Positions 1 through 58,930 of a stretch of 64,000 nucleotides of DNA are shown here, piece after piece. The translations under genes were made by a program, and so were the position numbers. The notes beneath the pieces are model-generated. The model saw only the letters and a list, made by a program, of their open reading frames with translations, was not told the origin of the DNA and did not search any database. The first letter of the stretch is position 1; the number at the start of each line of letters is the position of its first letter. Source of the stretch: a phage; NCBI GenBank assembly GCA_024673055.1, contig GCA_024673055.1_4537.1; one strand, given 5' to 3'.

Positions 1-1
1 T

Positions 2-310
2 GCTATTGCTATAGCTCCTTTGGTAGATAATGATTTTAATAATTGTAAAAGTAATCTCAAAATCCTAGAAGCTGGAGCAAAGGGTATTCCGATTGTTTGT
101 TCTAAGGTATTACCTTATTTTAACCCTGTAGATGCTCGTGCTGTTGCTTACGCAGAGAACAAAGCAGAATGGCATTACGAAATTGTTAAGCTTCTTCGCA
201 ATCCAAACTATCGGGAAGATCGTGGCTTGTTCTTGGCTGAACATGTTCGAACACATTATAATCTGGCAGATGCAAATGAGTTGCGACGCCAGGTTATTGA
301 AAGTTTGTAG
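2..310 (+). CDS. Glycosyltransferase-like protein, C-terminal fragment (5' end lies outside window)
   Basis: Frame is open from the window edge (no stop upstream of 20). The ~100 aa C-terminus is clearly homologous to the C-terminus of the 318..1262 product (NNxKSNLKILEAGAKG ... VRTHY). Confidence 0.5.
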   Translation, partial: AIAIAPLVDNDFNNCKSNLKILEAGAKGIPIVCSKVLPYFNPVDARAVAYAENKAEWHYEIVKLLRNPNYREDRGLFLAEHVRTHYNLADANELRRQVIESL

Positions 311-317
311 GTGAAGT

Positions 318-1262
318 ATGGGACAAATAATTCTTGACAATCGTAACGGAATCAATTATAGTGTCTGCGATTTCCATAGGGTAGTGCTGCCTTACTCAAG
401 GCAGTTCTCTTCACAACCTAAATACAACGTTTTCGTTTTTAACGGAGTGCCAACAAAAGGTAAAGAGGGCTTTTTAGCCCTTAAAAACCTAGGCTTTAAA
501 ATGGTTATGGATTTGGATGACTCTTTAGTTATTCCAAAAGGACACATGTTAGAAGGTATTTTTGAATCAGGTATTCGTGAACATTTAAAATGGTTTTTAG
601 AGCACAGCGATCTTGTTACAACTACGACACCTGCTTTGCAAGTTGAACTTTCACAATACAATGATAATGTGCACATAATCCCTAATGGACTTCCTTACGA
701 TGAAGGTCAATTTGTGTTGACCCGTGATCGCTACTCCAAAACTCCATTAGTCTGGGCTGGAAGTGAAACACATAAACAAGATTTGGCTATCTTACCTGAT
801 TTTGGTAAAGATCTTACAATATGTGGTTTTCGTAGGGATTCTGAAGTTTTAAGTAGTCGTGAATGGTCTGTAATCAGAGAAAATGTAGCACCAACTTGTG
901 TTTATGAAGGTGTAAGACCATATGCCAACTACATGGAATCTTACGATGGTCATCAAATCAGTCTTGCGCCATTGATTGATAACGTGTTTAATAATGCAAA
1001 AAGCAATCTTAAAATTCTTGAGGCAGGTGCTAAGGGTTTACCTTTGATCTGTTCTCCTCGTGAGAATTATCATACGCAAGAGTTTAAAGATTTGTTATTC
1101 TTTGCTGAAACACCTTCCGAGTGGAAAGATATTACGGAATACTTATTAAGTGCTCCCGATGTTTGCATGGAGAAAGGATTAGCATTAGCTAAGTATGTCA
1201 GGACTCATTATCACATTGATGTGTTGAATGAGCGTCGTAGACTTTTATTTGAGGAGCTATAA
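318..1262 (+). CDS. Putative glycosyltransferase (GT-B / group-1-like), paralog of upstream partial gene
   Basis: 314 aa ORF with a GT-like C-terminal segment (KSNLKILEAGAKGLPLI) and tight operon packing. Family assignment is inferred. Confidence 0.45.
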   Translation: MGQIILDNRNGINYSVCDFHRVVLPYSRQFSSQPKYNVFVFNGVPTKGKEGFLALKNLGFKMVMDLDDSLVIPKGHMLEGIFESGIREHLKWFLEHSDLVTTTTPALQVELSQYNDNVHIIPNGLPYDEGQFVLTRDRYSKTPLVWAGSETHKQDLAILPDFGKDLTICGFRRDSEVLSSREWSVIRENVAPTCVYEGVRPYANYMESYDGHQISLAPLIDNVFNNAKSNLKILEAGAKGLPLICSPRENYHTQEFKDLLFFAETPSEWKDITEYLLSAPDVCMEKGLALAKYVRTHYHIDVLNERRRLLFEEL

Positions 1263-1540
1263 TGATTAACACTTTTGATTTTGAATACACCACTCGTAAC
1301 GGGAAAGCTTTAGTCGTGGAGGTGGATTACTATTATGAAGAGCCTAACCCGCTTTCTCGTGAAAGTGATTGGGATTACCACGGAGGGCTTTTAATTGACG
1401 GTATTCGTTTTTACGAAGGCTCTACAGAAGTTTTTGAAAAAGATTTAAATGTAACTGTAGCAGAAATTGCTTTCCAATTTAGAAAGCACATGGAAGAACT
1501 AGAAGCAGAATATATGATGGAGACTAACGAACCATTTTAA
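1262..1540 (+). CDS. Hypothetical protein
   Basis: 92 aa ORF whose start overlaps the upstream stop (ATAATGA); same-strand operon context. Confidence 0.5.
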   Translation: MINTFDFEYTTRNGKALVVEVDYYYEEPNPLSRESDWDYHGGLLIDGIRFYEGSTEVFEKDLNVTVAEIAFQFRKHMEELEAEYMMETNEPF

Positions 1541-1552
1541 CAGGAGAACAAA

Positions 1553-3331
1553 GTGTCGCACATTATAACTAAATATGGATTTGATGTTGATCTTAGCAAG
1601 GAAGGGCATACAGGTTGTCCGCGCTGCATGAAAAATGGCAAGGATCGCTCTCGTAATAACCTGATGGTTTATGGATTAGATTCTAATGGAGAGCATAAAG
1701 GTGCTAAGTGCTTTGCGTGTGAATACACTATTCCTAGCGTAGAATGGTTACGAGAAAATGGTGAAGTTTTAGAAGAAGAGGAGGAGATTGTGGGTTCGGA
1801 ATTTAATAAACAGATTCATCGTAAAATTGTTCAAGAAACATCAACCAACCCACGTGGTTATCGAGGCATTAAAGAAAAAGTTTCATCTTTCTATGGTGTT
1901 CGTTATGAATACCGTCAGGAAGGGGATCAGATGGTAGTAGAAAGTTGTTTATATCCAACTACTATCGGTAAAGAATTGGTTGGTTTTAAGCGTCGTATTC
2001 ATCCTAAAGATTTCAGTAAACCTATTGGTCAAGTAGGTAAAGATGTAGATCTTTTTGGACAAATTCGTTTTGCAGACCGTTCTCATACTGTGGTAATTAC
2101 AGGTGGTGAACACGATGCTCTGGCAGCTTATCAAATGCTGTCTGAAAACTTGGACAACAAATATGAACTTCCAGCAGTAGTTAGTGGCACAACTGGTGAA
2201 ACCAGTATGTATAAACAAGTTCAGGCACAATATCCTTTTTTTGAAAAATTTAAGAAGATTATTGTTTGCATGGATAATGACAAAGCAGGTAATGAGGCAT
2301 TTGAAAATATTGTTAAGGTGCTGCCTCGTAACAAAGTCTACCGTATGCAGATGGATCTTAAGGATGCCAATCAGTATCTGGAAGAAGGTCGTGCAAAGGA
2401 TTTCGTAAAAGCTTTTTGGAGTGCTCGTCTATACACCCCAGCAGGTGTTTATGCTTCTAATGTCTTGTATGAAGCTGCATTAGAATGCTTGGAATCCAAG
2501 ATGATTACCTTGCCTCCTTTTATGCGTGTTGCTGCAAATATGCTGGGTGGTGGTTTAGTAGAGGAAGAGATTACAGTCATCCTGGCAAAGACCAGTATCG
2601 GTAAAACTTTGATGGTGAACGAGATCACCAAACATATTATTGTTGCGCACCCAGAACATACCCTAGGTATTCTGTCCTTGGAAGCAACTTATAAGAAATA
2701 TTCTCGTAACCTGTTGTCCTCGTTCCTGCATATTCCTCTACACAGGAAAACACCGGAAGAGAAATTTCAAATCTTGGAAGAGAATAAAGAAAAAATCCTA
2801 GATTTTTACGAAAGAGAAGATGGATCACCACGTTTTTATGTATGTGATGATCGTGGAGCAGATGTGGAGTCTATCAAAGAAAAAGTTTTGGAGATGATCA
2901 TCTATTTTGGAGTAACAATTCTTGTTATCGACCCTTATTCTGATTTGCTTTCTGGTATGGATGTTCAAGCCCAGGAAGAGTTAGCAACATGGTTGAAGCG
3001 CATCATGAAAGAGTATGCTATAACTATTATCGTCATCTCACACGTTAAGAAATCGGCTAATGGTGGCAATGAACACTTAACAGAGGACGATGCAATGGGT
3101 AGTAGTTTCTTGGCTAAAGGTGCTGGTATTACCTTGGCTTTGGAACGAGATAAAGCCGCTGAAGACCCTGTAGAACGCAATACGACTCATTGCTTTATCC
3201 TAAAAAACCGTGAGTTTTCGGAAACTGGTCCGGCAGGGCAGTTTTACTATGACATTAGAACTGCAACTCTGCATGACAAAGAGCAGTATTTCAACAATCC
3301 TGCTAATTTGCCTACGGATAGCAACTATTAA
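1553..3331 (+). CDS. DNA primase/helicase (T7 gp4-like)
   Basis: N-terminal Cys4 zinc ribbon (CPRC...CFAC), TOPRIM-like segment (VVITGGEHDALAAY), DnaB-type Walker A (ILAKTSIGKT) and Walker B (LVIDPYSDL). GTG start preceded by CAGGAGA. Confidence 0.85.
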   Translation: MSHIITKYGFDVDLSKEGHTGCPRCMKNGKDRSRNNLMVYGLDSNGEHKGAKCFACEYTIPSVEWLRENGEVLEEEEEIVGSEFNKQIHRKIVQETSTNPRGYRGIKEKVSSFYGVRYEYRQEGDQMVVESCLYPTTIGKELVGFKRRIHPKDFSKPIGQVGKDVDLFGQIRFADRSHTVVITGGEHDALAAYQMLSENLDNKYELPAVVSGTTGETSMYKQVQAQYPFFEKFKKIIVCMDNDKAGNEAFENIVKVLPRNKVYRMQMDLKDANQYLEEGRAKDFVKAFWSARLYTPAGVYASNVLYEAALECLESKMITLPPFMRVAANMLGGGLVEEEITVILAKTSIGKTLMVNEITKHIIVAHPEHTLGILSLEATYKKYSRNLLSSFLHIPLHRKTPEEKFQILEENKEKILDFYEREDGSPRFYVCDDRGADVESIKEKVLEMIIYFGVTILVIDPYSDLLSGMDVQAQEELATWLKRIMKEYAITIIVISHVKKSANGGNEHLTEDDAMGSSFLAKGAGITLALERDKAAEDPVERNTTHCFILKNREFSETGPAGQFYYDIRTATLHDKEQYFNNPANLPTDSNY

Positions 3332-3350
3332 GGGCTTCGGCCCTTTTATT
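3331..3350 (+). terminator. Rho-independent terminator after primase-helicase
   Basis: Hairpin GGGC-TTCG-GCCC followed by TTTTATT immediately after the stop codon. Confidence 0.55.
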
Positions 3351-3361
3351 AAAAATACCTG

Positions 3362-3390
3362 TTGACAACTTTACGGAAGGGACTTATACT
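3362..3390 (+). promoter_or_regulatory. Sigma70-like promoter
   Basis: TTGACA, 17-bp spacer, TATACT; followed by an RBS (AGAGGAG) and ATG at 3423. Confidence 0.55.
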
Positions 3391-3422
3391 TGTCTCATCA
3401 ACCAAACAAGAGGAGAAGTAAA

Positions 3423-3854
3423 ATGCGTATGACAATCGATCTGAATGCAAAAGTTAAAGCTGCTGGTGCTCTGGGTGCTGGTGTTATTAAACACAAACAA
3501 GCGTTGGCATTTGCCATCCCACATATGATTGTTGAGGATCATCCTGAAGAGTTTGCTGTAAAAGTTGTTGAGAATAATGTCTCTGTTATTGAACATCTTC
3601 CAACTGGACGTTCTTACCGTGTTGTTTCTTCTAAAGGTTTCCGTTTCGATGTAAGCCCTTCTTTCACAAAAGGTGCTGGTCGTAGTAAAGTGGGTATTCT
3701 TTCTTACAAATATTATATCGATAAAGTTGCAGATGGTGTTGCCTTCTGTCGTGTAAGTGAAGGTAAAGTAGATATCATCTTTAAAAATACCAAAAACATG
3801 GTTATTTCTGACGATGGTAAAGTTGACCTCACTATTGAGTTCGCTAACAACTAA
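3423..3854 (+). CDS. Hypothetical protein
   Basis: ORF track frame 3390..3854; the ATG at 3423 with an upstream AGAGGAG RBS is preferred because the track start overlaps the -10 box. Confidence 0.5.
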   Translation: MRMTIDLNAKVKAAGALGAGVIKHKQALAFAIPHMIVEDHPEEFAVKVVENNVSVIEHLPTGRSYRVVSSKGFRFDVSPSFTKGAGRSKVGILSYKYYIDKVADGVAFCRVSEGKVDIIFKNTKNMVISDDGKVDLTIEFANN

Positions 3855-3863
3855 GGAGGACTA

Positions 3864-4658
3864 TTGAGCAAGTTGAACACACTTGATCAATATTACACTA
3901 ACCCCGCTTATGCGGGGTTCTTATGTGATAAGATCAAAGAAATTTTTGGAGAGGAAGCTAACTACGTAGAACCATCTGCGGGAGAAGGAGCTTTCTCTTC
4001 TTGTTTTAAAAACATAACTTCTTTTGATATTGACCCTAAGTTTGAAGATTGTATTGAGGCAGATTTTTTAGCTCAATCTGTTGAGTCTGTTGGTAGTGTA
4101 ACTGCTTTTGTCGGTAATCCCCCGTTTGGAAAAAATGCTAGTCTTGCCATTAAGTTCTTTAACCATTGTGCTGAAATGTTGGATAACGAAGGTGGTATTT
4201 GTTTTATCTTGCCTCGCACATTTCAAAAAATCTTTTTTGCACACAAACTAAATCCCCACATGCATCTTCTTTACGAAGAAGAATGTCCAAAAGGATCTTT
4301 TATTCTTCATGGAGAACCTTGGGATGTTCCTTGCGTATTCCAGATATGGATTAAACGCAATGAGAAGCGTTCTCCCGTTGTTTTAGGAGAGAATCGACTG
4401 TTCGTATTAGGTAACAGTAAAGACTACGATATAGCCGTTAGGAGAGCGGGAGCAAGTGCAGGTAAAGTGTTATCAGAAGAAGATTCTTTATCTGAAGCAT
4501 CCACCTATTTTTTAAAAGCCTTGACTTCTGATCTTAAAACGCGTATCATTGAGGCTTACCCGTTACTTAAAGCTGAAGCTAGTAAAACTGCGGGAGTAAG
4601 AAGTTTAAGTTTAAAAGAACTTCAGTGGGTTCTGGAGAACATTAGAAAGGAGGAATAG
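3864..4658 (+). CDS. DNA N6-adenine (or N4-cytosine) methyltransferase
   Basis: SAM-binding motif I (VEPSAGEGAF) followed closely by catalytic motif IV (GNPPFGKN); motif order I then IV suggests gamma-class. TTG start after AGGAGG. Confidence 0.8.
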   Translation: MSKLNTLDQYYTNPAYAGFLCDKIKEIFGEEANYVEPSAGEGAFSSCFKNITSFDIDPKFEDCIEADFLAQSVESVGSVTAFVGNPPFGKNASLAIKFFNHCAEMLDNEGGICFILPRTFQKIFFAHKLNPHMHLLYEEECPKGSFILHGEPWDVPCVFQIWIKRNEKRSPVVLGENRLFVLGNSKDYDIAVRRAGASAGKVLSEEDSLSEASTYFLKALTSDLKTRIIEAYPLLKAEASKTAGVRSLSLKELQWVLENIRKEE

Positions 4659-7600
4659 TGAGTAAGTTTACATGGGATATTGAAGCAAACGGATTGTTGA
4701 ATAATGACACTATTGATTATTTAGCTAGTCCTTATCGTCTCAAAGACACATTTCAAATGCACTGTATTGTCTTAGAGAACCATGAAACAGGAGAAATAGT
4801 AGCTTTCCACGATGGCCCTAAATACATCTTTGATGGGCGTCCTTATGAAGAGTCAGATGGTAAATACACATATGTTCTTAAAGAGTATGTGGCGCAAGAT
4901 TACACACATTTTCAACTAAAAGATTTCCCAGACTTTATTAATCATGAAGGTTATTTTAAAGATAAGCCTGAATATCTGGTTGAAATGGCTGTGGCTCACA
5001 ACGGTATCAACTACGACTGGTTGGCTACAAAACTGTTTTATGGCTTAGATTACAGTGTTAAATATAACACGTGGGGCAAAAATAAGGTAAAACTTATTGA
5101 CTCCTTGATTTTGAGTAAAGTGTTAAACCCAGATCGAAAGATTGAGGGCAAATCAGGACATAGTTTGGCAGCACTTTCTCGAAAGGCAGGTGGTGATGTA
5201 AAAATAGATTTCCGTAAAGAGATTCCAGAAGAAGATCGATTTAAGACTTTTGCTGCGGATATGCTTTATTACTGTATTTATGACAACAAAGCCAATACGA
5301 GCGTATATAATTACCTTATGGAAGAATGGGGCGATTATGATAAATGGGAAGGTCCATTTGAACTTGAACAACGTGTAGCAGACATTATTACACGCCAGGA
5401 ACACCGTGGGTTTGCTTTTAACATGAAGCAAGCAGAAGAGAACCTTGCTTTTTTGGATGCAGAAATGGAGCGTCTTCGTTTACTCGTTGAGCCTATTTTG
5501 CCACCTAAACCAGCAACAAAAGGTTATCTTAAGGCTTTTATTCCACCTAAGTTGCAAATTAAAAAGAACTTAGAGCCAACTAACCATATGATCAATTTTG
5601 CTAAGAAACATGATGGTCATTTGGAAGAGAGGGATGGCGATTGGTGGTTAGTTATGTTGGGGAAAGAGTGGAAACTGCCAGTTGCAGCAGATGAGCCTCT
5701 ATGTGATCCTAACATTCCTGCAACATTGAACGATACAACCCATATTAAAAACTGGCTCGTAGGATTAGGTTGGGTACCGTCTGAATATAAAGATAAAGAC
5801 TTGACGCTTAAATCTGGCACCAAAATTAAAAAGAGCGAGGAAGAACTTCAGAAAGGTATTAGAGCTTACGTTGAGCAAACTCTATCTTCTAATTTTTGTC
5901 AGGATCGTTGTGATCATCTGGAGTGCACACCGGAAACTTTGGAAAGGAAGATTCAAGAGCGTATAGCAAAAGGTAAAGGTCGCGGTCTTAAAGTATTGAC
6001 TAACCCATGTTTTACCAAAGGTCAGGAAAAAGAAATTTGTCCTAACCTGCAAGCTTTGGGTGAGAAATTTCCTTATGCTACACAGATTGTAGAATACTTA
6101 ACGTATAAGCATCGTAGGAACTCTATTTTAGGTGGCGGTGCTGATTGGGAAGAAGATGAAGAAGATCAAGAATACGATAAAGGTTTCTTAGCCGCAGTAA
6201 GGGCGGATGGGCGTATTCCTACACCAGCCGCTACATGTGATGCTGCAACCTCTCGTATGAAACATAGATCTGTAGCTAATATTCCTCGTGTCACATCTTT
6301 GTTTGGATGGGAGATGCGTAACTTGTTTGGTGTAGAGGTTCCTAAATACTTCCAGATTGGCTACGACTTCGACTCTTTGGAAGCAAAAATTGAATCGCAT
6401 TACTGTGTGCCGATGGATGCTCAAGCTTTGACTCGTAAAGGTTGGGTAGGATATCACGACCTGAAGGAAGGGGATGAGATTTTAGGGTACAATGCTGAAA
6501 CAGGTCTGAAAGAATGGACTAAAGTAAAAGGTAAGGTCTTCTATAAAAATAGTAAGACGTTTGAGATTAAAGGGAAATCACACACTTACCGTGCAACAGC
6601 AGATCACCGTTGGTATGTTAATACCCGTAGTAAAGGGAATACTTATGTGCCTAAAGTCAGAACAACTGCCGAGCTTTGCACAGGAGATAACATTATTTGT
6701 AATGCTCCATTTAACATGGAACAAGATCAGGTAAATAGTTTAACTTCTGTTCAACAGGGTAAATGGGATGTTCCGTGGGTAGAACGTGTAGTTAATATGT
6801 CTCATGCCGAGCGTGTAGCTTTCTTGGAAGGTTTCTTGATTGCAGATGGTTACTGGCACGAACATAAACAAAAACCTGTTTGGCGTTGGGCGCAGAACCC
6901 AGGTGAACTTTTTGAAGCAGCTTTAACTGCCTCGTACCTGGTGCATGGAGGCAATATCTCTGTAGCTTTCAATACAAAAGAGCAGAAAGTAAAAGTGGCA
7001 ACATTGACTAACCGCTCTCACATTCCTGTTCAAAGTTTGACTATTGAAGAGTGGGGTGTAGAAGATGTTTGGTGTCCACAAACAGAACTTGGTACGTGGG
7101 TCATGCGTCAGAAAGACTGCATTACCATCACAGGAAACTGTTGGCGGTACGAGCCGGAGCCACACGAATATTGTAACGCTCTGTTGTTAGAGAAACCTAA
7201 TGATGTTCACACAATGATGGCAAAACGTATCACTGAAACTATTGGACGTAAATTTGAACGTAGTCCTGCTAAATCTGTTAAGTATGGTATTACCTATGGT
7301 GCACAAGCCGACAAGGTTGCTAAAACAATTGGTAGCGACAAGTTTACAGGTCAATTGGTGTTCGATGCTTTCTGGGAAGCTGCATTCCCATTGGCGCGTC
7401 TTAAAGAACGTTTAAACGATTTCTGGGTTAAGACTGGTAAACAATATGTTTTGGGTATTGACGGTCGTAAGGTTCCTACTCGTTCTGCTCACGCGATTCT
7501 TAACTCTCTGTTCCAAAGCGGTGGGGTTATCTGTGCTAAACGTGCAATGGTTATTTATGATGACATGATCGAAGAAGAAGGGCTAAGTGTTGACTTCTTT

Positions 7601-7990
7601 AAAGATGACTGGAAGAATAAAGACTTCGTGCAACAAATGATTGCATATCACGATGAAGCCCAGCTTGAAGTTTCTCGTAACCTTGTAGAATTCAAATGGT
7701 TTTCACCGGAATCATTAGGTTGGAAGAAAGTAGACGATCCTGAAGAACAAAAGAAAATTGATAAAGAATGCCTTGCTAAAGTTGAAGAATGGAAGCATAA
7801 TAAGGAAAAAGAGACAGGGCAAATTTGGGCTAACATTCATGAATCTCCCAAAGGTGGATGGTTTACAGCTTATAGTCGGGCAGGTGAACTTGCTGCTTTA
7901 GCTGTTACTAAGGCTGGAGAATTTTACAATCTTAATGTTCAGCTTACTGCTGGATATGACGTGGGGAATTCCTGGGCCAGTTGTCACTGA
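4658..7990 (+). CDS. DNA polymerase, family A with 3'-5' exonuclease domain, interrupted by an intein
   Basis: Exo I (DIEANGL), Exo II (HNGINYDW) and Exo III (YYCIYD) motifs. Pol motif A (DFDSLEAKIESHY) is separated from motif B (KSVKYGITYGA) by a 245 aa insert with intein and LAGLIDADG signatures. Confidence 0.9.
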   Translation: MSKFTWDIEANGLLNNDTIDYLASPYRLKDTFQMHCIVLENHETGEIVAFHDGPKYIFDGRPYEESDGKYTYVLKEYVAQDYTHFQLKDFPDFINHEGYFKDKPEYLVEMAVAHNGINYDWLATKLFYGLDYSVKYNTWGKNKVKLIDSLILSKVLNPDRKIEGKSGHSLAALSRKAGGDVKIDFRKEIPEEDRFKTFAADMLYYCIYDNKANTSVYNYLMEEWGDYDKWEGPFELEQRVADIITRQEHRGFAFNMKQAEENLAFLDAEMERLRLLVEPILPPKPATKGYLKAFIPPKLQIKKNLEPTNHMINFAKKHDGHLEERDGDWWLVMLGKEWKLPVAADEPLCDPNIPATLNDTTHIKNWLVGLGWVPSEYKDKDLTLKSGTKIKKSEEELQKGIRAYVEQTLSSNFCQDRCDHLECTPETLERKIQERIAKGKGRGLKVLTNPCFTKGQEKEICPNLQALGEKFPYATQIVEYLTYKHRRNSILGGGADWEEDEEDQEYDKGFLAAVRADGRIPTPAATCDAATSRMKHRSVANIPRVTSLFGWEMRNLFGVEVPKYFQIGYDFDSLEAKIESHYCVPMDAQALTRKGWVGYHDLKEGDEILGYNAETGLKEWTKVKGKVFYKNSKTFEIKGKSHTYRATADHRWYVNTRSKGNTYVPKVRTTAELCTGDNIICNAPFNMEQDQVNSLTSVQQGKWDVPWVERVVNMSHAERVAFLEGFLIADGYWHEHKQKPVWRWAQNPGELFEAALTASYLVHGGNISVAFNTKEQKVKVATLTNRSHIPVQSLTIEEWGVEDVWCPQTELGTWVMRQKDCITITGNCWRYEPEPHEYCNALLLEKPNDVHTMMAKRITETIGRKFERSPAKSVKYGITYGAQADKVAKTIGSDKFTGQLVFDAFWEAAFPLARLKERLNDFWVKTGKQYVLGIDGRKVPTRSAHAILNSLFQSGGVICAKRAMVIYDDMIEEEGLSVDFFKDDWKNKDFVQQMIAYHDEAQLEVSRNLVEFKWFSPESLGWKKVDDPEEQKKIDKECLAKVEEWKHNKEKETGQIWANIHESPKGGWFTAYSRAGELAALAVTKAGEFYNLNVQLTAGYDVGNSWASCH
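6404..7138 (+). mobile_element. Intein with LAGLIDADG homing-endonuclease-like domain, inserted after Pol motif A
   Basis: Insert begins with Cys (CVPMDAQALTRKGW...GDEILGYN, block A-like), has a TxxH block B (TADHRWYV) and a LAGLIDADG-like motif (FLEGFLIADGYW), and ends ...ITGN with Cys at +1. The flanks rejoin into a contiguous Pol A motif region. Confidence 0.7.
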
Positions 7991-8009
7991 TCTAACGTAT
8001 TGTTTTATA

Positions 8010-50315: not shown

Positions 50316-50394
50316 TGGAGGCGGGAATCGGATTCGAACCGATGATCTCCAGCATATGAAACTGGCGAGGACGACCAGACTCCTCTATCCCGCT
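50316..50394 (-). tRNA. tRNA-Met (anticodon CAT), CCA encoded
   Basis: Hand-folded cloverleaf: T-arm ATCGG-TTCGAAT-CCGAT, anticodon stem CCAGT/GCTGG with loop TTCATAT, D-stem GAGG/CCTC; the 1-72 pair is A-C (unpaired). Confidence 0.6.
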
Positions 50395-50400
50395 ATTATG

Positions 50401-50470
50401 TATCCCGTGCTGGATTCGAACCAGCATCACAATAAGTTGTGGAACTCTTATCCTGTAAGTCTAACGGGAA
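50401..50470 (-). tRNA. tRNA-like element with aberrant anticodon arm (possible pseudo-tRNA)
   Basis: Good T-arm (GCTGG-TTCGAAT-CCAGC) and near-complementary acceptor, but the anticodon region folds only as CACAA-CTTA-TTGTG (4-nt loop). Confidence 0.3.
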
Positions 50471-50472
50471 AC

Positions 50473-50546
50473 TGGTTGTTTCGACAAGAATCGAACTTGT
50501 GTCTCACGATTATCAGTCGTGGGTTCTACCATTGAACTACGAAACA
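50473..50546 (-). tRNA. tRNA-Ile (anticodon GAT), CCA encoded
   Basis: Acceptor TGTTTCG/CGAAACA, D-arm GTTC-AATGGTA-GAAC, anticodon stem CACGA/TCGTG with loop CTGATAA, T-arm ACAAG-TTCGATT-CTTGT. Confidence 0.7.
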
Positions 50547-50552
50547 TTTGAT

Positions 50553-50629
50553 TGGTCGGAATTGCAGGATTCGAACCTGCGACCCTACGCTCCCAAAGCG
50601 TATGCTCTACCAAACTGAGCTAAATTCCG
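50553..50629 (-). tRNA. tRNA-Pro (anticodon TGG), CCA encoded
   Basis: Acceptor CGGAATT/AATTCCG, D-arm GCTC...GAGC, anticodon stem TACGC/GCGTA with loop TTTGGGA, T-arm GCAGG-TTCGAAT-CCTGC. Confidence 0.7.
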
Positions 50630-50634
50630 TTATA

Positions 50635-50710
50635 TGGCTGGTCTGTCTGGATTTGAACCAAACCTACGACAGTCAAAGTGTCGTGTGCTACCGGACTACA
50701 CTACAAACCA
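50635..50710 (-). tRNA. tRNA-Gln (anticodon TTG), CCA encoded
   Basis: Acceptor TGGTTTG/CAGACCA (one GU pair), anticodon stem CGACA/TGTCG with loop CTTTGAC, T-arm TTTGG-TTCAAAT-CCAGA. Confidence 0.65.
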
Positions 50711-50808
50711 ATAAATCATTTAATGAAGGGCAACCAGAAGAGGTGTGAGAGAAGGAGAAAACCATGAGTAAAAGAGAAAGTTTTCTGGCAACCCTTTATT
50801 AAATAATT

Positions 50809-50882
50809 TGGAGCGTTCTACGAGGATCGAACTCGTGCCGCCGACTTGGAAGGACGGAATGCTACCGCTACACCAAGAACGC
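50809..50882 (-). tRNA. tRNA-Gly (anticodon TCC), CCA encoded
   Basis: Acceptor GCGTTCT/AGAACGC, anticodon loop CTTCCAA (stem has one U-U mismatch), T-arm ACGAG-TTCGATC-CTCGT. Confidence 0.6.
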
Positions 50883-50893
50883 CCTACATCTTT

Positions 50894-50923
50894 ACTATAC
50901 TACATTTTACTATTGGTTGTCAA
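50894..50923 (-). promoter_or_regulatory. Sigma70-like promoter (minus strand) for downstream tRNAs
   Basis: On the minus strand AACTATTGACAA, 18 bp, TATAGT, just upstream of tRNA-Gly. Confidence 0.5.
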
Positions 50924-51383
50924 TAGTTTTATTGAGTGGGACAGTGACGAGTATCCCGTTGGGTGACTAGCCCTACGTTCGGTAAGCTAACTTAAAATAA
51001 TACAAAACCAAAGTCAAATATTATTCTTCGTTGCTGTCGATGGGAGAGCCGCTTCTTCTTTTGCCCCATCCAACCCTACTCCGGTCAAGTTTCAGGTAAC
51101 TCTTTTTGTGATCAACACAATACTAAGAACACTGTCTTTCGAGCAGACCTTGTGCACAGGATACGACGATCAATCACAGTGCTCTTAATGTTGTGTTGTG
51201 AATACTAACCTCGGAACTCATTACCGCGTTTTGGCTCGACCTTACTACAGGTTAGTGAATGTCTTTCGTCCGCTTACATTCAATAAGTTTGCTTTCTTCA
51301 CAACGATAAGAACACTTAACAGAAGATAGGTCTGATTGCCTCGGATGATTTCTCAGTAGCCTAAATGTTCTTACCTGTTATGT

Positions 51384-51458
51384 TGGTGCTCCCACTCTGA
51401 ATCGAACAGAGATCCACGGATTACAAAACCGTTGTAATAGCCATTATACTATAGGAGC
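51384..51458 (-). tRNA. tRNA-Thr (anticodon TGT), CCA encoded
   Basis: Acceptor GCTCCTA/TGGGAGC, anticodon loop TTTGTAA (stem with one U-U mismatch), T-arm CTCTG-TTCGATT-CAGAG. Confidence 0.55.
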
Positions 51459-51464
51459 AAAGCT

Positions 51465-51541
51465 GGGACTCGGCAGGATTCGATACCTGCAATTTCAGAA
51501 GCCTCTTGGCGACTGGGGGTTTACCTTAACTCTACAAGTCC
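51465..51541 (-). tRNA. tRNA-like element, non-canonical (8-nt T-loop, no foldable anticodon arm)
   Basis: Acceptor GGACTTG/CGAGTCC and T-arm-like GCAGG-TATCGAAT-CCTGC, but no 5/7/5 anticodon arm could be found by hand. Confidence 0.3.
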
Positions 51542-51548
51542 ATAATTC

Positions 51549-51634
51549 TGGCGATGAGTATAGGATTTGAACCTATATCGTTCTTTCGAACACGGATTAA
51601 CAGTCCGCCGCTTAAACCATTCAGCCAACTCATC
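51549..51634 (-). tRNA. tRNA with anticodon GTT (Asn codons) on a long-variable-arm, Tyr-like body; CCA encoded
   Basis: Perfect acceptor GATGAGT/ACTCATC, anticodon arm GCGGA-CTGTTAA-TCCGT, 15-nt variable arm (GTTC-GAAA-GAAC), T-arm ATAGG-TTCAAAT-CCTAT; lies adjacent to tRNA-Tyr. Confidence 0.5.
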
Positions 51635-51640
51635 TTAATT

Positions 51641-51728
51641 TGGTGGTGAGTGATGGAGTCGAACCACCCGAATCGCAATGATAACAGATTTACAGTCTGC
51701 CCCGCTACCCCTACGGAATTAACTCACC
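51641..51728 (-). tRNA. tRNA-Tyr (anticodon GTA), type II, CCA encoded
   Basis: Acceptor GGTGAGT/ACTCACC, anticodon arm GCAGA-CTGTAAA-TCTGT, long variable arm, T-arm GGTGG-TTCGACT-CCATC. Confidence 0.65.
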
Positions 51729-51858
51729 TAAATACTAATATTTAAATTCTTTTTAAAATAGCCAGTGTTCACACCACTAACTATGAGTTATCGGTAAGAT
51801 GGTGGGGGCCATCTGCCGAAAGTTTACTCTATTAAAGTAAGCTATATTAAAAAGAACT

Positions 51859-51944
51859 TGGCGGTAGATGTAGGACTCGAACCTACATGCCGTTTCCGAC
51901 TACAGTTTAGCAAACTGTCGTGGCTACCATTTCACCAATCTACC
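51859..51944 (-). tRNA. tRNA-Ser (anticodon GCT), type II, CCA encoded
   Basis: Acceptor GGTAGAT/ATCTACC, anticodon arm ACAGT-TTGCTAA-ACTGT, long variable arm, T-arm GTAGG-TTCGAGT-CCTAC. Confidence 0.65.
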
Positions 51945-51948
51945 AATC

Positions 51949-52039
51949 TGGCGGAAGGAGGGAGAGTCGAACTCCCAAGGCTCTTTCAAGCTCGGCGGTT
52001 TTCAAGACCGTTTTCGTCGCCACGTCGATTTGCCCTTCC
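51949..52039 (-). tRNA. tRNA-Ser (anticodon TGA), type II, CCA encoded
   Basis: Acceptor GGAAGGG/TCCTTCC, anticodon loop CTTGAAA, long variable arm, T-arm GGGAG-TTCGACT-CTCCC. Confidence 0.55.
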
Positions 52040-52047
52040 ATACTTAT

Positions 52048-52077
52048 AATCTAACATAAAATAATGTTAGTTGTCAA
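52048..52077 (-). promoter_or_regulatory. Sigma70-like promoter (minus strand) inside the tRNA cluster
   Basis: On the minus strand AACTATTGACAA, 18 bp, TAGATT, upstream of tRNA-Ser(TGA). Confidence 0.45.
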
Positions 52078-52273
52078 TAGTTTTTTAAAACATTTTACCA
52101 TGAATGGTGACTCCACCAACCCCCGTTCTCAACGAACGGTGCTCTTCGAGCATTTATGTCTTCTAATATAACCGTGGCCTTTGTTTATAATGTCTGACAT
52201 ACTTGCCTCATTCTCTGCCACCATGATCAGTAGTGGGTTCAAATCACTTGAGCTAATTCATGTTAAAATGTTC

Positions 52274-52348
52274 TGGTGTCTTTACAAGGAATCGAACCTT
52301 GACTAAGAGTTTAGAAGACTCCTGTGCTATCCATTACACCATAAAGAC
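52274..52348 (-). tRNA. tRNA-Arg (anticodon TCT), CCA encoded
   Basis: Acceptor GTCTTTA/TAAAGAC, anticodon arm GGAGT-CTTCTAA-ACTCT, T-arm CAAGG-TTCGATT-CCTTG. Confidence 0.7.
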
Positions 52349-52350
52349 GT

Positions 52351-52425
52351 TGGTGGCCCTGGCTGGTTTCGATCCAGCTACCTATCGGTTATGAGCCGAC
52401 AGCTCTCCCATTGAGCTACAGGGCC
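52351..52425 (-). tRNA. tRNA with anticodon CAT (Met, or Ile if lysidine-modified), CCA encoded
   Basis: Acceptor GGCCCTG/CAGGGCC, D-arm GCTC-AATGGGA-GAGC, anticodon arm GTCGG-CTCATAA-CCGAT, T-arm GCTGG-ATCGAAA-CCAGC. Confidence 0.65.
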
Positions 52426-56179: not shown

Positions 56180-56524
56180 ATGAAAGTTTGGATAGATGAT
56201 ATGCGGAACCCAGCCGACTATGGACAGGAAGATGCAATTTGGTTTAAAACGTCACAAGAAGCTATGGCCTTTCTCAATGATCCTGCTAAACTGTATCGAA
56301 GAGTAACCGAGTGGTCTTTTGACAATGATTTAGGTATGGAGTCAGACCAAGATGGGTATGATGTTTTCCTGCACCTGGAAGAACTTCTGGCGTTTGGTAA
56401 ACCTTGCTTTGGTTCACCTACCATTTTCGTGCATACTTCTAATCCCGCCGCTGGGGATAAATTCATGCTTGCAAAAGAATCCATGCTGCGTTATGGTATT
56501 AAAATGATTCGTGTGCACTACTAA
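56180..56524 (+). CDS. Hypothetical early protein
   Basis: 114 aa ORF after an AAAGGAGG RBS. Confidence 0.5.
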   Translation: MKVWIDDMRNPADYGQEDAIWFKTSQEAMAFLNDPAKLYRRVTEWSFDNDLGMESDQDGYDVFLHLEELLAFGKPCFGSPTIFVHTSNPAAGDKFMLAKESMLRYGIKMIRVHY

Positions 56525-56533
56525 GGAGAAAAC

Positions 56534-56677
56534 ATGCATCATTCGGTTTGGTCGGAACAAGAAGAGGACGAAGGTTACTTTATCTACCGAGAAGAAGAGG
56601 ATTGGCCCGACACAAGTAATGATCTTTTACTTCCAGACACTAGTTTTTTCGAGGATAACTTAAGAGAGGAGGATTAG
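56534..56677 (+). CDS. Hypothetical small highly acidic protein (47 aa)
   Basis: Not in the track (below 60 aa); RBS AAGGAGAAAAC; about 40% Asp/Glu. Confidence 0.35.
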   Translation: MHHSVWSEQEEDEGYFIYREEEDWPDTSNDLLLPDTSFFEDNLREED

Positions 56678-56683
56678 GAAACA

Positions 56684-57040
56684 ATGAGTGGTATTGAAAA
56701 CAACATTTGTTACCAACCTCTTACCTGGATTGGTGAGGGTCATTATGCGCAACGTGTTATCGTCTGTGCTGCGAATAAGTATATTTTGAATAATGGTGAA
56801 GAGTTAATTATTCCTTGTGTTCGACATGCAAATCCTGTACTATATGCACAGTTAAGCGTGTTGAAAGAAGCAGGTGTAATCAACAAAACTTTGTGCACAC
56901 CAGATAATCAAGGCTTTATCGATCAGTATTACAATTGGTGGAGTCGTGCGGATGCTTACATCATCGCGGAAAATGCTGACCAGATCGACCATGAGCGTAA
57001 TGGTCACGACCATGAATTATTTAGCGAGGGATTATACTAA
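56684..57040 (+). CDS. Hypothetical protein
   Basis: 118 aa ORF immediately upstream of the RNA repair cassette. Confidence 0.5.
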   Translation: MSGIENNICYQPLTWIGEGHYAQRVIVCAANKYILNNGEELIIPCVRHANPVLYAQLSVLKEAGVINKTLCTPDNQGFIDQYYNWWSRADAYIIAENADQIDHERNGHDHELFSEGLY

Positions 57041-57591
57041 TGTTTATTACAAGCGATTTGCATTTTATGCATAAACGTATTCGAGAGTTTGCTCCTGAAT
57101 ATCGTCCGTGGGAAGATATGGACCACATGACAGAAGCCTTGATCGAAGCATGGAACAAATGTGCTACTACTCCTGGTGTTAAGATGTGGCATTTGGGCGA
57201 CTTCTGTTTCGGAACTGAAGAAGATACCCGTAAAATTGCTTCCCGTCTCCAAGGAGATATCACCTACTGTGTTGGGAACCATGACTACAGCAAACACCGA
57301 GAAGTGCTTGCAGAGTATGGAGAAGTGGTGTATTATGACGAAGTGAAATATCAGAAGCTGTTCTTCGTCTTAAGCCATTACCCTATGGCCTCCTGGAATA
57401 AACAAGGTCGTGGATCAATCATGCTACACGGGCATTCCCACGGATCTTTCCCTGATGAAGCTTATGGTAAAATGTTAGATGTGGGTTGGGATGCACACGG
57501 AAAAATCTTGCATTTTGATGAGATAATTTCTATGATGAGTAAACGAGATATCGTGACTGTAGACCATCACAAAATAATCAAAGGAGAATAA
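57040..57591 (+). CDS. Calcineurin-like metallophosphoesterase (candidate RNA 3'-end healing phosphatase)
   Basis: Motifs DxH (TSDLHF), GD (HLGDFCFG), GNHD (CVGNHDYS) and GHxH (LHGHSHG) in canonical order. Confidence 0.7.
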   Translation: MFITSDLHFMHKRIREFAPEYRPWEDMDHMTEALIEAWNKCATTPGVKMWHLGDFCFGTEEDTRKIASRLQGDITYCVGNHDYSKHREVLAEYGEVVYYDEVKYQKLFFVLSHYPMASWNKQGRGSIMLHGHSHGSFPDEAYGKMLDVGWDAHGKILHFDEIISMMSKRDIVTVDHHKIIKGE

Positions 57592-57592
57592 T

Positions 57593-58525
57593 GTGGCTAA
57601 ATTTAATTGCGACGATTTGGTTGAAAAAGGTTTAGTTCATAAGAAAACATATAAAGAAGGAGAGTATTCTGGTCTATCTGTTCTTAAGTATAAGAACAAA
57701 GTTTTCTGGGATAACTTATGGAGCATTGATTCTCGTCTTCTAGAATGTCGCGGAATCGTTGTTGATGCTGATGACAATGTTGTTATTTGGCCTTTCACTA
57801 AGATTTTTAATCGTTTTGAGAATGGCACAGATCTACCAGCGGATGAACTTGTAGATGTGGTTCGTAAAGTAAATGGTTTTATGGCCTCTGTAGGTGTATA
57901 TAAAGGTCAACTTATTGTATCGACAACAGGAAGCCTTGAATCAGATTTTGCAAGTATTGCAAAGAATCATATTGTTTCAGAGTGTGATGACATAGAACAT
58001 TTCATCAAATGGACAGAGAGTGCAAAAGCAACTTTCCTTTTTGAAATCTGTGATCCTTCTGATCCGCATATTGTCGAAGAAGAACCAGGTGCATACTTAA
58101 TTGGTGCCAGAATTCAAAATCCTGATGGGACAAGTTTTATGTTACCTGAAGGTGCTCTTGATGGAATTGCTTCTGTCACCAAATTTAAGCGTCCTGAAGT
58201 TCATCCAATGGTTAAGTTTTCAGATGTTGTTGAAATGTCTAAACATTGTAAACACGAAGGGTTTGTAGTTCGTGAAACAAACTATCCGTTCAACTTACTT
58301 TTAAAAATTAAATCACCACACTATCTTACTAAGAAGTTTCTTATGCGCGGTGGAGATAAAAAGTGGGATCTGATTTGGGATAATCCAAAAAATGCCAAAC
58401 AAATGGTTGACGAAGAATATTACGCTTTGTTAGAATGGATTCGAAATAATTTTACGAAGATTCAATGGGCTGCTTTAAATCAGCAAGAGCGACGTGAAAA
58501 AATCGAAAACTTTTTTGGAGGATAA
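57593..58525 (+). CDS. Putative RNA ligase (covalent nucleotidyltransferase superfamily)
   Basis: Motif I-like KVNG (VRKVNGFMASV), motif IV EGFVVR, motif V LLKIKSPHY; flanked by phosphoesterase and polynucleotide kinase genes. Confidence 0.6.
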   Translation: MAKFNCDDLVEKGLVHKKTYKEGEYSGLSVLKYKNKVFWDNLWSIDSRLLECRGIVVDADDNVVIWPFTKIFNRFENGTDLPADELVDVVRKVNGFMASVGVYKGQLIVSTTGSLESDFASIAKNHIVSECDDIEHFIKWTESAKATFLFEICDPSDPHIVEEEPGAYLIGARIQNPDGTSFMLPEGALDGIASVTKFKRPEVHPMVKFSDVVEMSKHCKHEGFVVRETNYPFNLLLKIKSPHYLTKKFLMRGGDKKWDLIWDNPKNAKQMVDEEYYALLEWIRNNFTKIQWAALNQQERREKIENFFGG

Positions 58526-58930
58526 ATGAAACAACTTATCATTTTACGTGGTGTTTCAGGTGCTGGTAAATCTACAGTAGCAGAAATTATTTCTGAAGGT
58601 TATTGGCCTATCTGTGAGGCAGATCAATATCATTACACAGAGAGTGGTGTTTACGATTGGAAGCCAGAAAATGTAGGTAAAGCACACGCATGGTGTCAGG
58701 GTATTGTTCGTGATGCTATGGCATCTAATCTTAACAAGATTATTGTTTCTAATACTTCAACCACAGAGAAAGAACTTAAACCTTATCTAGCTCTTGCTGA
58801 AGAGTTTGGTTATCAAGTTATCTCTTTAGTTGTTGAAAATAGGCACGGTAATGATTCAATTCACGAGGTTCCACAATATATCCGTGATCAGCAAGAGAAA
58901 CGTCTTCGTGGTTCACTTAAACTTCAATAA
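58526..58930 (+). CDS. Polynucleotide 5'-kinase (T4 Pnk kinase-domain-like)
   Basis: P-loop LIILRGVSGAGKST; overall pattern parallels the T4 Pnk kinase domain (IIVSNTST; LAEEFGYQV). Confidence 0.7.
   Translation: MKQLIILRGVSGAGKSTVAEIISEGYWPICEADQYHYTESGVYDWKPENVGKAHAWCQGIVRDAMASNLNKIIVSNTSTTEKELKPYLALAEEFGYQVISLVVENRHGNDSIHEVPQYIRDQQEKRLRGSLKLQ

Follow-up and report, generated by a model that had tools for sequence, protein, structure and literature searches.

Tandem GT-B glycosyltransferase genes of a Phapecoctavirus phage lie in a four-gene cassette that may act on virion proteins

To what do two neighbouring glycosyltransferase-like genes, placed directly ahead of the replication genes of an E. 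coli phage, transfer sugars? The pair lies at the start of the window, a stretch of 64,000 nucleotides (GCA_024673055.1, contig GCA_024673055.1_4537.1) that belongs to a Phapecoctavirus (Stephanstirmvirinae, phAPEC8-like). A preliminary description of this DNA suggested that the two paralogs might glycosylate modified DNA bases. This idea is not new, as glycosylation of DNA with rhamnose or other sugars was raised as a speculation for such phages in 2020 (Olsen et al. 2020, PMC7552041), and RefSeq records of relatives already call both genes glycosyltransferase. Our analysis upheld the glycosyltransferase identity of the pair and spoke against DNA as its target.

An old gene pair with a predicted GT-B fold

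The window opens inside a gene. The reading frame at 2..310 (plus strand) has no upstream stop and is therefore the 3' end (102 codons and a stop) of a gene whose start lies outside the window; an ORF starting with TTG at 20..310 was dismissed as an artefact of the gene being cut at the window edge. The second gene, at 318..1262 (plus strand), is complete and encodes 314 aa. That the first gene is partial and the second complete had been correctly described. A near-identical phage, anhysbys, supplied the full-length upstream copy and a complete genome for searches. The product of 2..310 agrees with the C-terminus of gp014 of anhysbys (315 aa) in 101 of 102 residues and that of 318..1262 with gp013 in 312 of 314, and the two genes were assigned as orthologs of these.

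The neighbouring genes are paralogs, as had been proposed: their window products share 48 of 101 residues (BLASTP, no gaps, E 2e-28), and the motif NNxKSNLKILEAGAKG ... VRTHY was found in both. The preliminary description, for which the upstream copy was visible at its C-terminus alone, held that the copies diverge elsewhere. This did not stand, since full-length gp014 and gp013 are 41% identical over 303 aa (E 6e-77) and are therefore homologous throughout. At the DNA level the two C-terminal regions are only 49% identical and the gp014 and gp013 genes have no exact word of 12 nt or longer in common, so the duplication is old. The upstream copy is nearer to outgroup homologs, with 51% identity to a Serratia prophage protein compared to 40% for the downstream copy. 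Both products match phrog_7162 'glycosyltransferase' (E 3e-52 for 2..310 and 5e-145 for 318..1262), a family placed in the PHROG category 'moron, auxiliary metabolic gene and host takeover'.

The AlphaFold model of the 318..1262 product, built with an alignment, reached a pLDDT of 93.5 and has two Rossmann-like alpha/beta domains with a cleft between them. Based on this model we are confident in predicting a GT-B fold, with GT4-type transferases as the nearest relatives, in agreement with the earlier glycosyltransferase-like assignment. The single-sequence model of the complete gene was unusable (pLDDT 33.9). The best Foldseek matches were PglA, GlgM and BshA, followed by GtfC/Gtf3, MshA, TarM and SdgB, and the BFVD matches were labelled 'RfaG'. 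In Pfam the complete gene passed Glyco_trans_1_2 by a narrow margin (25.2 bits, cutoff 25). The truncated upstream gene gave weak matches to Glyco_trans_1_4 and Glyco_trans_1_2 (16.2 and 13.7 bits) that stayed below the cutoff because the gene is cut at the window edge; its full-length ortholog scored 22.5 and 20.7 bits, still below. At E<=1 only generic GT-B and GT-4 models were matched in Pfam, precomputed PF13524 matches exist for most homologs, and NCBIfam left all cassette proteins without a usable name.

In the KSNLKILEAGAKG region K228 and K232 are invariant and E235 is nearly invariant among 30 homologs. The region aligns with the donor domain of TreT, and these residues are the predicted donor site. 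The N-terminal half, which would form the acceptor-side domain, carries a conserved H-R and a conserved D-x-D-D. The enzymes would transfer glycosyl groups from a nucleotide-sugar.

A four-gene cassette and its surroundings

In complete relatives the GT-B pair closes a cassette of four genes, which begins with a 187-aa GT-A-like gene and a 227-aa GT-A gene carrying a DDD motif and ends with the two GT-B genes of about 315 aa. The corresponding genes of anhysbys (gp016, gp015, gp014 and gp013) are contiguous or overlapping, and their PHROG and Pfam matches are to glycosyltransferase families throughout. The cassette is kept across the sampled Stephanstirmvirinae, and a Serratia prophage carries the same three-gene module (41%, 37% and 51% identity). 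Natural variants have one hybrid gene in place of the GT-B pair, which shows that two separate copies are not required. Neither GtrA nor any other membrane family of the Gtr type was detected in Pfam scans that covered the four cassette proteins and three ORFs upstream.

Directly downstream, a 92-aa ORF at 1262..1540 (plus strand) overlaps the stop of the second paralog with its start (ATAATG). It matches phrog_4240 (unknown function, E 6e-33) and no family in the Pfam scan. Its cluster (c58) directly follows the GT-B pair in five Phapecoctavirus-type loci (L006, L007, L009, L014 and L091) and is not present in the prophage versions of the cassette; it is at most a possible cassette member.

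Genes for rhamnose synthesis accompany the cassette. Phage ESCO5 has an rmlB-A-C-D operon and anhysbys has rmlC-D only, and in relatives the rml genes have nrd and thyX genes around them. The distribution of RmlC among phage isolates is nearly equal to that of the GT-B gene (35/30/65 and 35/30/66 records, respectively, in the top identity bands). The rml genes of relatives map outside the stretch that matches the window; a placement at 55.7-62.9 kb of the window was rejected, as the ORFs there are RNA-repair, ligase and RdgC genes.

In this phage the cassette has endolysin and small ORFs to one side of it and primase-helicase, methyltransferase and DNA polymerase genes to the other, all on the same strand. 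A promoter and terminator scan found no terminator-like site on the coding strand inside the cassette or between it and the replication genes. Shared strand and uninterrupted sequence tentatively suggest early or middle expression. The 30 promoter-like sites were not enriched over expectation (22.4 +/- 5.1).

The GT-B family is almost entirely phage- or prophage-borne, with distant relatives on at least 555 viral contigs in IMG/VR, in prophages of Serratia, Pseudomonas and Chitinophagaceae and in a Streptomyces phage. In these distant relatives the glycosyltransferase genes lie beside packaging and structural genes, whereas the cassette of this phage adjoins lysis and replication genes. In two loci (L018 and L025) the GT-B gene lies between an HK97-type major capsid gene and a gp6 connector gene, and in five others (L032, L037, L039, L042 and L046) between an XkdF-type prohead protease gene and scaffold-like or capsid-like genes. 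In the Serratia, Pseudomonas and Chitinophagaceae prophages it is found just upstream of HNH and terminase genes; the Serratia cassette comes after lysis genes, and in the Pseudomonas prophages a gene for a Big_2 protein lies directly upstream of the GT pair. Streptomyces phage Zuko has the GT-B gene upstream of terminase and preceded by a nucleotide-sugar epimerase gene. We surveyed 124 neighbours in the 10 closest non-Phapecoctavirus loci, one of which is a contig of about 150 kb with a primase-helicase context resembling that of this phage. The Pfam families seen more than once were glycosyltransferase, terminase, portal, capsid, tail lysozyme, DUF3383, neck terminator and Ig-like Big_2/Big-like. 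PHROG matches of the conserved neighbours in metagenomic relatives were mostly of 'unknown function'.

Candidate acceptors

Hypermodification of DNA, in which the transferases would add rhamnose or other sugars to a modified base and so evade nucleases, draws on the position of the cassette beside primase-helicase, DNA methyltransferase and DNA polymerase genes, a neighbourhood that the preliminary description had rightly pointed out, and on that of the rml genes among nrd and thyX. A resemblance to BshA, MshA and PglH is also seen in GT-B enzymes of phages that are proven to glycosylate DNA, and some of their genes lie near terminase genes (bioRxiv 10.1101/2023.12.21.572611). The GT-A protein gp015 matches TAGT PF20691 weakly (E 1e-3) and phrog_842, a beta-glucosyl-HMC-alpha-glucosyltransferase (E 6e-6), but the TAGT match spans only 37 residues round a generic DxD motif, and we rejected both matches as diagnostic because they are confined to that generic region. 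The comparison with the T4 alpha/beta-glucosyltransferases failed, since BLASTP found no match of T4 AGT or BGT to the cassette GT-B proteins. All characterised phage DNA-glycosylation pathways need a ThyA-type hydroxymethylase or a hydroxylase/oxygenase, and a companion enzyme that would provide a hydroxyl-bearing base was not found in the complete relative genome: T4 gp42 (a ThyA-type hydroxymethylase) had no tblastn match at E<=10, neither in the window nor anywhere in the anhysbys genome, the anhysbys annotation lists ThyX only and neither a hydroxymethylase nor a TET-type oxygenase, and no TET/JBP family was matched in Pfam by the four proteins round the Dcm-like methyltransferase and the protein beside ThyX (five proteins). 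No base-modifying family recurred among the 124 neighbours. Published restriction data also argue against this target. HincII cuts Phapecoctavirus DNA in a study in which the T-even phages were the only refractory ones (PMC10269720), and phi92-like BASEL phages, which carry an orthologous GT-B pair, are 'exceptionally susceptible' to restriction-modification systems (PMC8594841; also PMC10844046); known glycosylated phage DNAs are restriction-resistant. The isoelectric point was uninformative as a proxy for DNA binding (T4 AGT 6.1, gp013 5.7, gp014 8.5). Nucleoside LC-MS data showing a glycosylated base in these phages were not found in the searchable literature. Glycosylation of DNA may still be sparse or sequence-specific, and overall we consider DNA a quite improbable target. 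The repeated statement in the literature of a 'rhamnose modification of DNA' in these phages thus comes without supporting evidence and has several lines against it.

Remodelling of the host envelope was also considered. The enzymes would place sugars, possibly rhamnose, onto a lipid-linked intermediate or one of the LPS core, ECA or capsule, and would thereby mask phage receptors, so that superinfection is blocked or the loss of progeny on cell debris is prevented. Many structural neighbours (PglA, WlaC, PimA/B, TarM, WaaB, WaaG, WbnH) act on lipid-linked or envelope glycans, the BFVD label points the same way, and ECA and LPS core glucose are thought to be receptors of these phages (PMC8594841). 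The PHROG category, the apparent co-transcription of the cassette with replication genes at an early or middle stage, and the place of the Serratia cassette after lysis genes, where accessory genes are commonly inserted, would all fit. However, the family keeps its acceptor-side N-terminal domain across phages of Enterobacteria, Pseudomonas, Chitinophagaceae and Streptomyces, hosts whose envelope glycans differ; the copies in temperate phages lie inside the late packaging and head operon, away from the integrase and immunity genes where conversion genes usually sit; and the cassette showed no Gtr-type membrane component in Pfam. We regard the envelope as an unlikely target. Another soluble acceptor, either a host protein or a small molecule, appears distinctly unlikely. 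Its glycosylation could, for example, disable a defence signal or take over host physiology, and both small-molecule transferases (BshA, MshA, sucrose-phosphate and trehalose synthases, tetrahydrobiopterin glucosyltransferase) and protein transferases (GtfA, SdgB) are among the top structural matches. The location next to replication and host-takeover-type genes in this phage and the single-hybrid-gene variants are compatible with it, but a multi-enzyme cassette for building an oligosaccharide would be an unusual means of disabling a small molecule, the idea does not explain why the gene recurs within head and packaging operons, and no candidate acceptor can be named.

The reading that we prefer, with a probability of about 40%, is that the cassette builds a short glycan step by step, probably with rhamnose, on a protein of the virion. 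The occurrence of the GT-B gene beside capsid, prohead protease and terminase genes in other lineages points to a late, head-linked function. The matching gene position in mycobacteriophage Che8, whose capsid is reported to be glycosylated, also speaks for a virion target. We infer the following route, of which the acceptor is the most tentative part. The GT-B pair, derived from an old tandem duplication, would supply the third and fourth enzymes of the cassette. Each copy is predicted to bind a nucleotide-sugar with its C-terminal half (KSNLKILEAGAKG region) and the acceptor with its N-terminal half (H-R and D-x-D-D). Acting in sequence, the four enzymes would make a glycan of about three or four sugars, using host UDP-sugars and dTDP-L-rhamnose from the phage's own rml genes. 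The acceptor would probably not be DNA and most likely a phage structural protein made late (capsid, decoration or tail), and the outcome would be a glycan coat on the virion, as on mycobacteriophage capsids and giant-virus capsids and fibrils. Against a virion target, the cassette of this phage lies away from the head genes and near replication genes, the Che8 glycosyltransferases are not homologous to the GT-B family, and late-operon insertions can be unrelated 'morons'. Phage phi92 also has the orthologous pair, and a cryo-EM study published in 2026 presents atomic models of its capsid, cement and tail proteins and leaves glycans unmentioned (PMC13450770); we take this as weak negative evidence against virion glycans. 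Searches of the literature found neither glycoprotein data for these phages nor a functional study of these genes.

In its general form, namely that virion proteins are glycosylated by a conserved GT-A/GT-B module which is duplicated in Stephanstirmvirinae and receives dTDP-rhamnose made by the phage, we put the proposal forward as doubtful. If true, glycan-coated virions would occur in phages that infect Gram-negative bacteria, among them broad-host-range coliphages of interest for therapy, and would be widespread (at least 555 IMG/VR contigs) across the phages of Pseudomonadota, Bacteroidota and Actinomycetota. Both Phapecoctavirus and phi92-like phages infect a broad range of hosts and are therapy candidates (PMC10269720, PMC10844046), and a glycan coat could affect their persistence in the patient. 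If the target is the host envelope or DNA, the cassette would instead matter for superinfection exclusion or for escape from host nucleases. The analysis also delimits a GT-B family carried by phages, together with a portable module of three genes, both open to direct tests.

Comparison with known glycosylation systems

The GT-B pair has no sequence relationship to T4 AGT/BGT, to the arabinosyl-5hoC enzymes of RB69, DLP3 and HY126 or to the MT/5mYOX-dependent glycosyltransferases. Known phage DNA-glycosylation pathways further differ in their companion enzyme, which was not found in the complete relative genome, and in the restriction resistance of their DNA, as HincII cuts the DNA of the present phages and phages with the same pair are restriction-sensitive. 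Gtr-type serotype conversion uses a membrane GtrA flippase, a GtrB bactoprenol transferase and GtrC, whereas the Pfam scans of the cassette were free of Gtr-type membrane families. Giant viruses such as PBCV-1 and Mimivirus glycosylate their capsids and fibrils with virus-encoded rhamnose synthesis; their hosts are eukaryotic and their capsid proteins unrelated, and the likeness is by analogy and fold only.

In PMC11256854, the capsid of mycobacteriophage Che8 is reported to be glycosylated (Freeman et al. 2023) and the capsid glycan shield of mycobacteriophages to alter antibody production and binding. Che8 has three glycosyltransferase genes before HNH at the genome end beside terminase, the position that the cassette takes in the Serratia, Pseudomonas and Chitinophagaceae prophages and in Zuko, whereas the cassette of this phage is not beside head genes. 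We take Che8 genes 108-110 to be responsible for its virion glycosylation. These enzymes are all of the GT-A type or GT-A fused to another domain, unlike the GT-B pair, and homology of the GT-B family to them was rejected (hhalign with Che8 gp108, probability 0.4%). The sole BLASTP match of gp108 was a weak GT-A resemblance to gp015 (E 0.004).

The closest known enzymes are the retaining GT-B transferases of the GT4 type (CAZy GT4: PglA, BshA, MshA, PimA, WlaC, sucrose-phosphate synthase; PF13524 CgeB-like). Compared to these, the phage proteins are shorter (about 315 aa and 360-400 aa, respectively), are only 9-16% identical to any solved enzyme, and carry a signature of their own, with H-R and D-x-D-D in the N-terminal half and the KSNLKILEAGAKG region.

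The glycosyltransferase pair and its hybrid variants

The window begins with the 3' end of one glycosyltransferase gene (2..310, plus strand; 102 open codons and a stop, the gene beginning outside the window), followed by a complete ORF of 314 aa on the same strand (318..1262). The first 8 kb were 98-99% identical to about 65 complete Escherichia phage genomes, among them EF1-1, anhysbys, ESCO5 and phAPEC8, all myophages of about 150 kb belonging to Phapecoctavirus (Stephanstirmvirinae). The RefSeq record of phage anhysbys was used as a guide to the sequence beyond the window edge. The partial product matched the C-terminal end of anhysbys gp014 (315 aa) at 101 of 102 residues, and the complete product matched anhysbys gp013 at 312 of 314. 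The preliminary description had read the two as neighbouring paralogous glycosyltransferase genes, and this was borne out: the window products share 48% identity over 101 ungapped residues (E 2e-28) and both match phrog_7162 'glycosyltransferase'. Both genes are real and their recognition as glycosyltransferases is correct, an annotation that public records already carry. The claim that they diverge outside the C-terminal domain did not hold, as full-length gp014 and gp013 align across 303 residues with 41% identity (E 6e-77); the impression arose because the upstream gene is cut by the window edge.

The duplication is old, since the C-terminal coding regions of the paralogs have 49% DNA identity and no exact 12-mer common to both anhysbys copies was found. 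Outgroup homologs resemble the upstream copy more (51% identity to a Serratia prophage protein, versus 40% for the downstream copy), so the complete downstream copy looks like the more diverged duplicate. Among the loci examined, tandem duplication of this ~315-aa family (hereafter GT-B) was restricted to Stephanstirmvirinae-type loci. A near-consensus sigma-70-like promoter (TTGACA, 17 nt spacer, TATAGT; 11/12 matches) lies on the plus strand at 334..362, 16 nt inside the downstream paralog start, and was detected at the corresponding anhysbys position (L001:9334-9362). It may be a coincidence, the regional promoter count being not above chance.

Pfam gave only weak generic GT-B matches (Glyco_trans_1_2, 25.2 bits versus a cutoff of 25). 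Fold prediction, which had been proposed as a check, gave a confident GT-B, GT4-like model: with an alignment of 30 homologs AlphaFold reached pLDDT 93.5 and pTM 0.91, compared to pLDDT 33.9 in a single-sequence run. The top-ranked Foldseek matches in the PDB were PglA, GlgM, BshA, GtfC/Gtf3, MshA, TarM and SdgB. The predicted fold is that of a 'GT4-like glycosyltransferase', which does not specify the acceptor. The N-terminal half has H20-R21, D65, D67-D68 and H76 as invariant or nearly invariant positions of the alignment; in the C-terminal half these are K228, K232 and E235, within the KSNLKILEAGAKG stretch.

Some assembled Phapecoctavirus contigs from public read assemblies (L089:4001-4945, L090:4001-4948) carry one hybrid gene instead of the pair, joining an upstream-type N-terminal part to a downstream-type C-terminal part. 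Crossovers fell into two classes, one near residues 126-140 and the other near residues 226-245, at the KSNLKILEAGAKG motif. The L090 DNA follows the upstream paralog at 95-100% identity to about nt 700 and the downstream paralog at 100% from there on. An assembly artefact that collapsed the pair is unlikely, because the anhysbys paralogs have no common exact 12-mer, and the hybrids are probably real deletion fusions formed by unequal recombination. If so, the paralog halves appear interchangeable and two separate copies apparently dispensable.

The four-gene cassette and its surroundings

In anhysbys the pair belongs to a cassette in the order gp016 (187 aa), gp015 (227 aa), gp014 (315 aa) and gp013 (314 aa), with genes that overlap or are separated by a few bases. 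For gp016 and gp015, too, the PHROG matches are glycosyltransferase families, and gp015 has a DDD motif and weak GT-A matches. Upstream of the cassette are a SleB-type endolysin and small ORFs. Downstream, the placement of the pair ahead of primase-helicase, methyltransferase and DNA polymerase genes was confirmed, with a conserved 92-aa ORF intervening. A scan for coding-strand terminator-like sites along this stretch found none. A few kb upstream of the cassette in anhysbys, just upstream of the window start, are tellurite-resistance-like genes (TelA, vWA-TerF-like and TerD, with TerC nearby; L001:1182-5795 and L002:1587-2561), which are unusual cargo in a lytic coliphage.

The gene at 3864..4658 (plus strand) is a DNA N6-adenine methyltransferase according to the annotation of its relatives; its product has an NPPF motif (VGNPPFGKN) and no Pfam match at E<=0.01. 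The following polymerase gene (PolA, 4658..7990) contains a 245-aa in-frame insertion at 6404..7138, which is absent from phage ABPW7 and seemingly also missing in ECO340P1 and ASO2A (query coverage 91%, in two pieces). Its first residue is Cys (CVPMDAQAL...), its end is ...ITGN with a Cys next in line, and a LAGLIDADG-like 'FLIADGYW' lies within it. The insertion thus resembles an intein that carries a homing endonuclease. DNA_pol_A was the only Pfam match of the gene at E<=0.01. Ten tRNA genes (Met x2, Ile, Pro, Gln, Gly, Thr, Asn, Ser, Arg) lie on the minus strand at 50316..52425, between the structural module and early genes. An RNA-repair-like module at 56180..58930 (plus strand) comprises a cyclic-phosphate-processing receiver domain (cREC_REC), a calcineurin-like phosphoesterase, a T4 Rnl1-type RNA ligase and an AAA_33 kinase-like protein, with an ATP-dependent DNA ligase gene 3' of it (59673..60800).

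Relatives in other phages and prophages

At least 555 viral contigs in IMG/VR encode a GT-B relative according to a pattern search, and 23 such loci came from a search restricted to one genome per species. The closer of these 23 (25-38% identity) were prophage-like regions of Pseudomonas, Chitinophagaceae and other Bacteroidota, and five weak matches were large multidomain proteins with no phage context. ORFs at the loci were called and clustered, and cluster representatives annotated. In 37 of 80 viral loci the GT-B gene had a gp015-like GT-A gene alongside it, and a hexapeptide acyltransferase was often present as well. The Serratia prophage carries gp016-like, gp015-like and GT-B genes (41%, 37% and 51% identity), arranged as in the cassette and placed between lysis genes and HNH/terminase; this three-gene module is portable.

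The context of the GT-B gene recurs in five unrelated settings. In high-GC HK97-like phages (L018/L025) it follows terminase, portal, S78 protease and major capsid protein genes and precedes a gp6 connector and a head-completion protein. In a second group (L032, L037, L039, L042, L046) it is flanked by an XkdF-type prohead protease on one side and by scaffold-like and capsid-like genes on the other, and in a large group including the Chitinophagaceae prophages directly 5' of HNH, small terminase and large terminase. Streptomyces phage Zuko has a nucleotide-sugar epimerase, GT, HTH protein, terminase and portal. Pseudomonas prophages have the order Big_2 Ig-like protein, GT-A, GT-B, metallopeptidase, terminase, portal. 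In the prophage of Pseudomonas sp. App30, the GT-A/GT-B pair is directly preceded by a 208-aa Big_2 protein (L093:6645-7268) and directly followed by a phage metallopeptidase, before terminase, as also in L094 and L013. This Ig-like protein is a candidate acceptor. Among 124 neighbours at the ten closest loci outside Phapecoctavirus, a Pfam scan placed at least two proteins in each of the following families: glycosyltransferase, terminase, portal, capsid, tail lysozyme, DUF3383, neck terminator and Ig-like Big_2/Big-like. One of these loci (L011), a contig of ~150 kb, has the cassette adjoining a primase-helicase gene as in the window's phage.

Genes for dTDP-L-rhamnose lie elsewhere in the same genomes, outside the window, and are polymorphic in presence: ESCO5 has a full rmlB-A-C-D operon (L087:4494-7772) and anhysbys rmlC-D only (L003:16462-17864), in agreement with isolates reported to be without rmlA and rmlB (PMC10269720). 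The GT-B gene and RmlC were found throughout Phapecoctavirus and in most of the sampled phi92-like genus Justusliebigvirus, and in sequenced phage isolates they were distributed almost alike, with 35/30/66 and 35/30/65 records, respectively, in the top identity bands. The tandem pair is present in phi92 (gp164/gp165) and the BASEL phages PaulScherrer and JohannJBalmer, and one Justusliebigvirus alia record has a single copy. As both gene sets are conserved across the whole subfamily, their co-occurrence does not count as independent support for a functional link. The records matching window 1..8000 include 'Acinetobacter phage ABPW7' (99.2% DNA identity), 'Klebsiella phage ZCKP1' (97.9%) and five labelled 'Campylobacter phage', all near-identical or close to coliphages of Stephanstirmvirinae. 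In Campylobacter phage A145 the GT-B gene shares ~72% identity with gp014, and RmlC shows 62% identity, as in phi92-type coliphages. These matches point to a very broad host range or to errors in some of the host labels.

New here are the four-gene cassette, the portable three-gene module that also occurs in prophages, the consistent association of this module with packaging and head genes, and the hybrid variants.

Possible acceptors of the cassette

Glycosylation of modified DNA bases, as suggested in the preliminary description, is an existing speculation: rhamnosylation of hydroxymethylated nucleotides was proposed for exactly these phages by Olsen et al. (PMC7552041) and repeated in PMC10844046. 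It is at odds with current evidence. Every characterised phage route to glycosylated DNA depends on enzymatic installation of a base with a hydroxyl group. This step is carried out by a ThyA homolog (T4 gp42; 5-hydroxycytosine synthases in RB69, DLP3 and HY126) or by a methyltransferase together with a 5mYOX/TET oxygenase (bioRxiv 10.1101/2023.12.21.572611; PMC13326640). With tblastn, T4 gp42 had no match at E<=10 in the window and the complete anhysbys genome, and flavin-dependent ThyX was the only thymidylate synthase-type entry listed in the annotation. No TET/JBP match was found in the four proteins around the Dcm-like methyltransferase or in the neighbour of ThyX, no base-modifying Pfam family recurred among the 124 neighbours, and the cassette proteins had no sequence relation to T4 AGT or BGT. 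Phapecoctavirus DNA is digestible with HincII, which served to type isolates, the only resistant phages being the three T-even phages of that study (PMC10269720). The phi92-like BASEL phages with the orthologous pair were 'exceptionally susceptible' to restriction-modification 'despite a putative dTDP glycosylation machinery' (PMC8594841). As neither a hydroxyl-installing enzyme nor a relation to AGT/BGT was detected, and in view of the HincII cutting and this susceptibility, we consider DNA quite unlikely as the acceptor; a sparse or site-specific modification may still occur.

The recurrent late placement among packaging and head genes across very different hosts, together with the conserved acceptor-side domain, suggests that the acceptor would be supplied by the phage and made late in infection. 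With DNA disfavoured, a virion protein would then be the best candidate (probability about 0.4). Our confidence is held at that level because the cassette in the window's phage adjoins replication genes and not head genes, accessory genes also insert into late operons, a 2026 cryo-EM study of phi92 with atomic models of capsid, cement and tail proteins does not mention glycans, and the literature searched contained no glycoprotein data for these phages. The main rivals are remodelling of the host envelope and another soluble acceptor. The former fits the structural neighbours and the glycan receptors of the phage, but is hard to square with the diversity of hosts and the position in late operons, and is doubtful; the latter we regard as unlikely.

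For glycosylation of a virion protein, a parallel of gene position exists in mycobacteriophage Che8, the capsid of which reportedly carries glycans (PMC11256854). Che8 similarly has three glycosyltransferase genes just before HNH at the genome end, next to terminase, but these are not homologous to the GT-B family. The parallel is one of 'works like', not of membership. A further analogy comes from giant viruses that produce rhamnose themselves and decorate capsids or fibrils with it.
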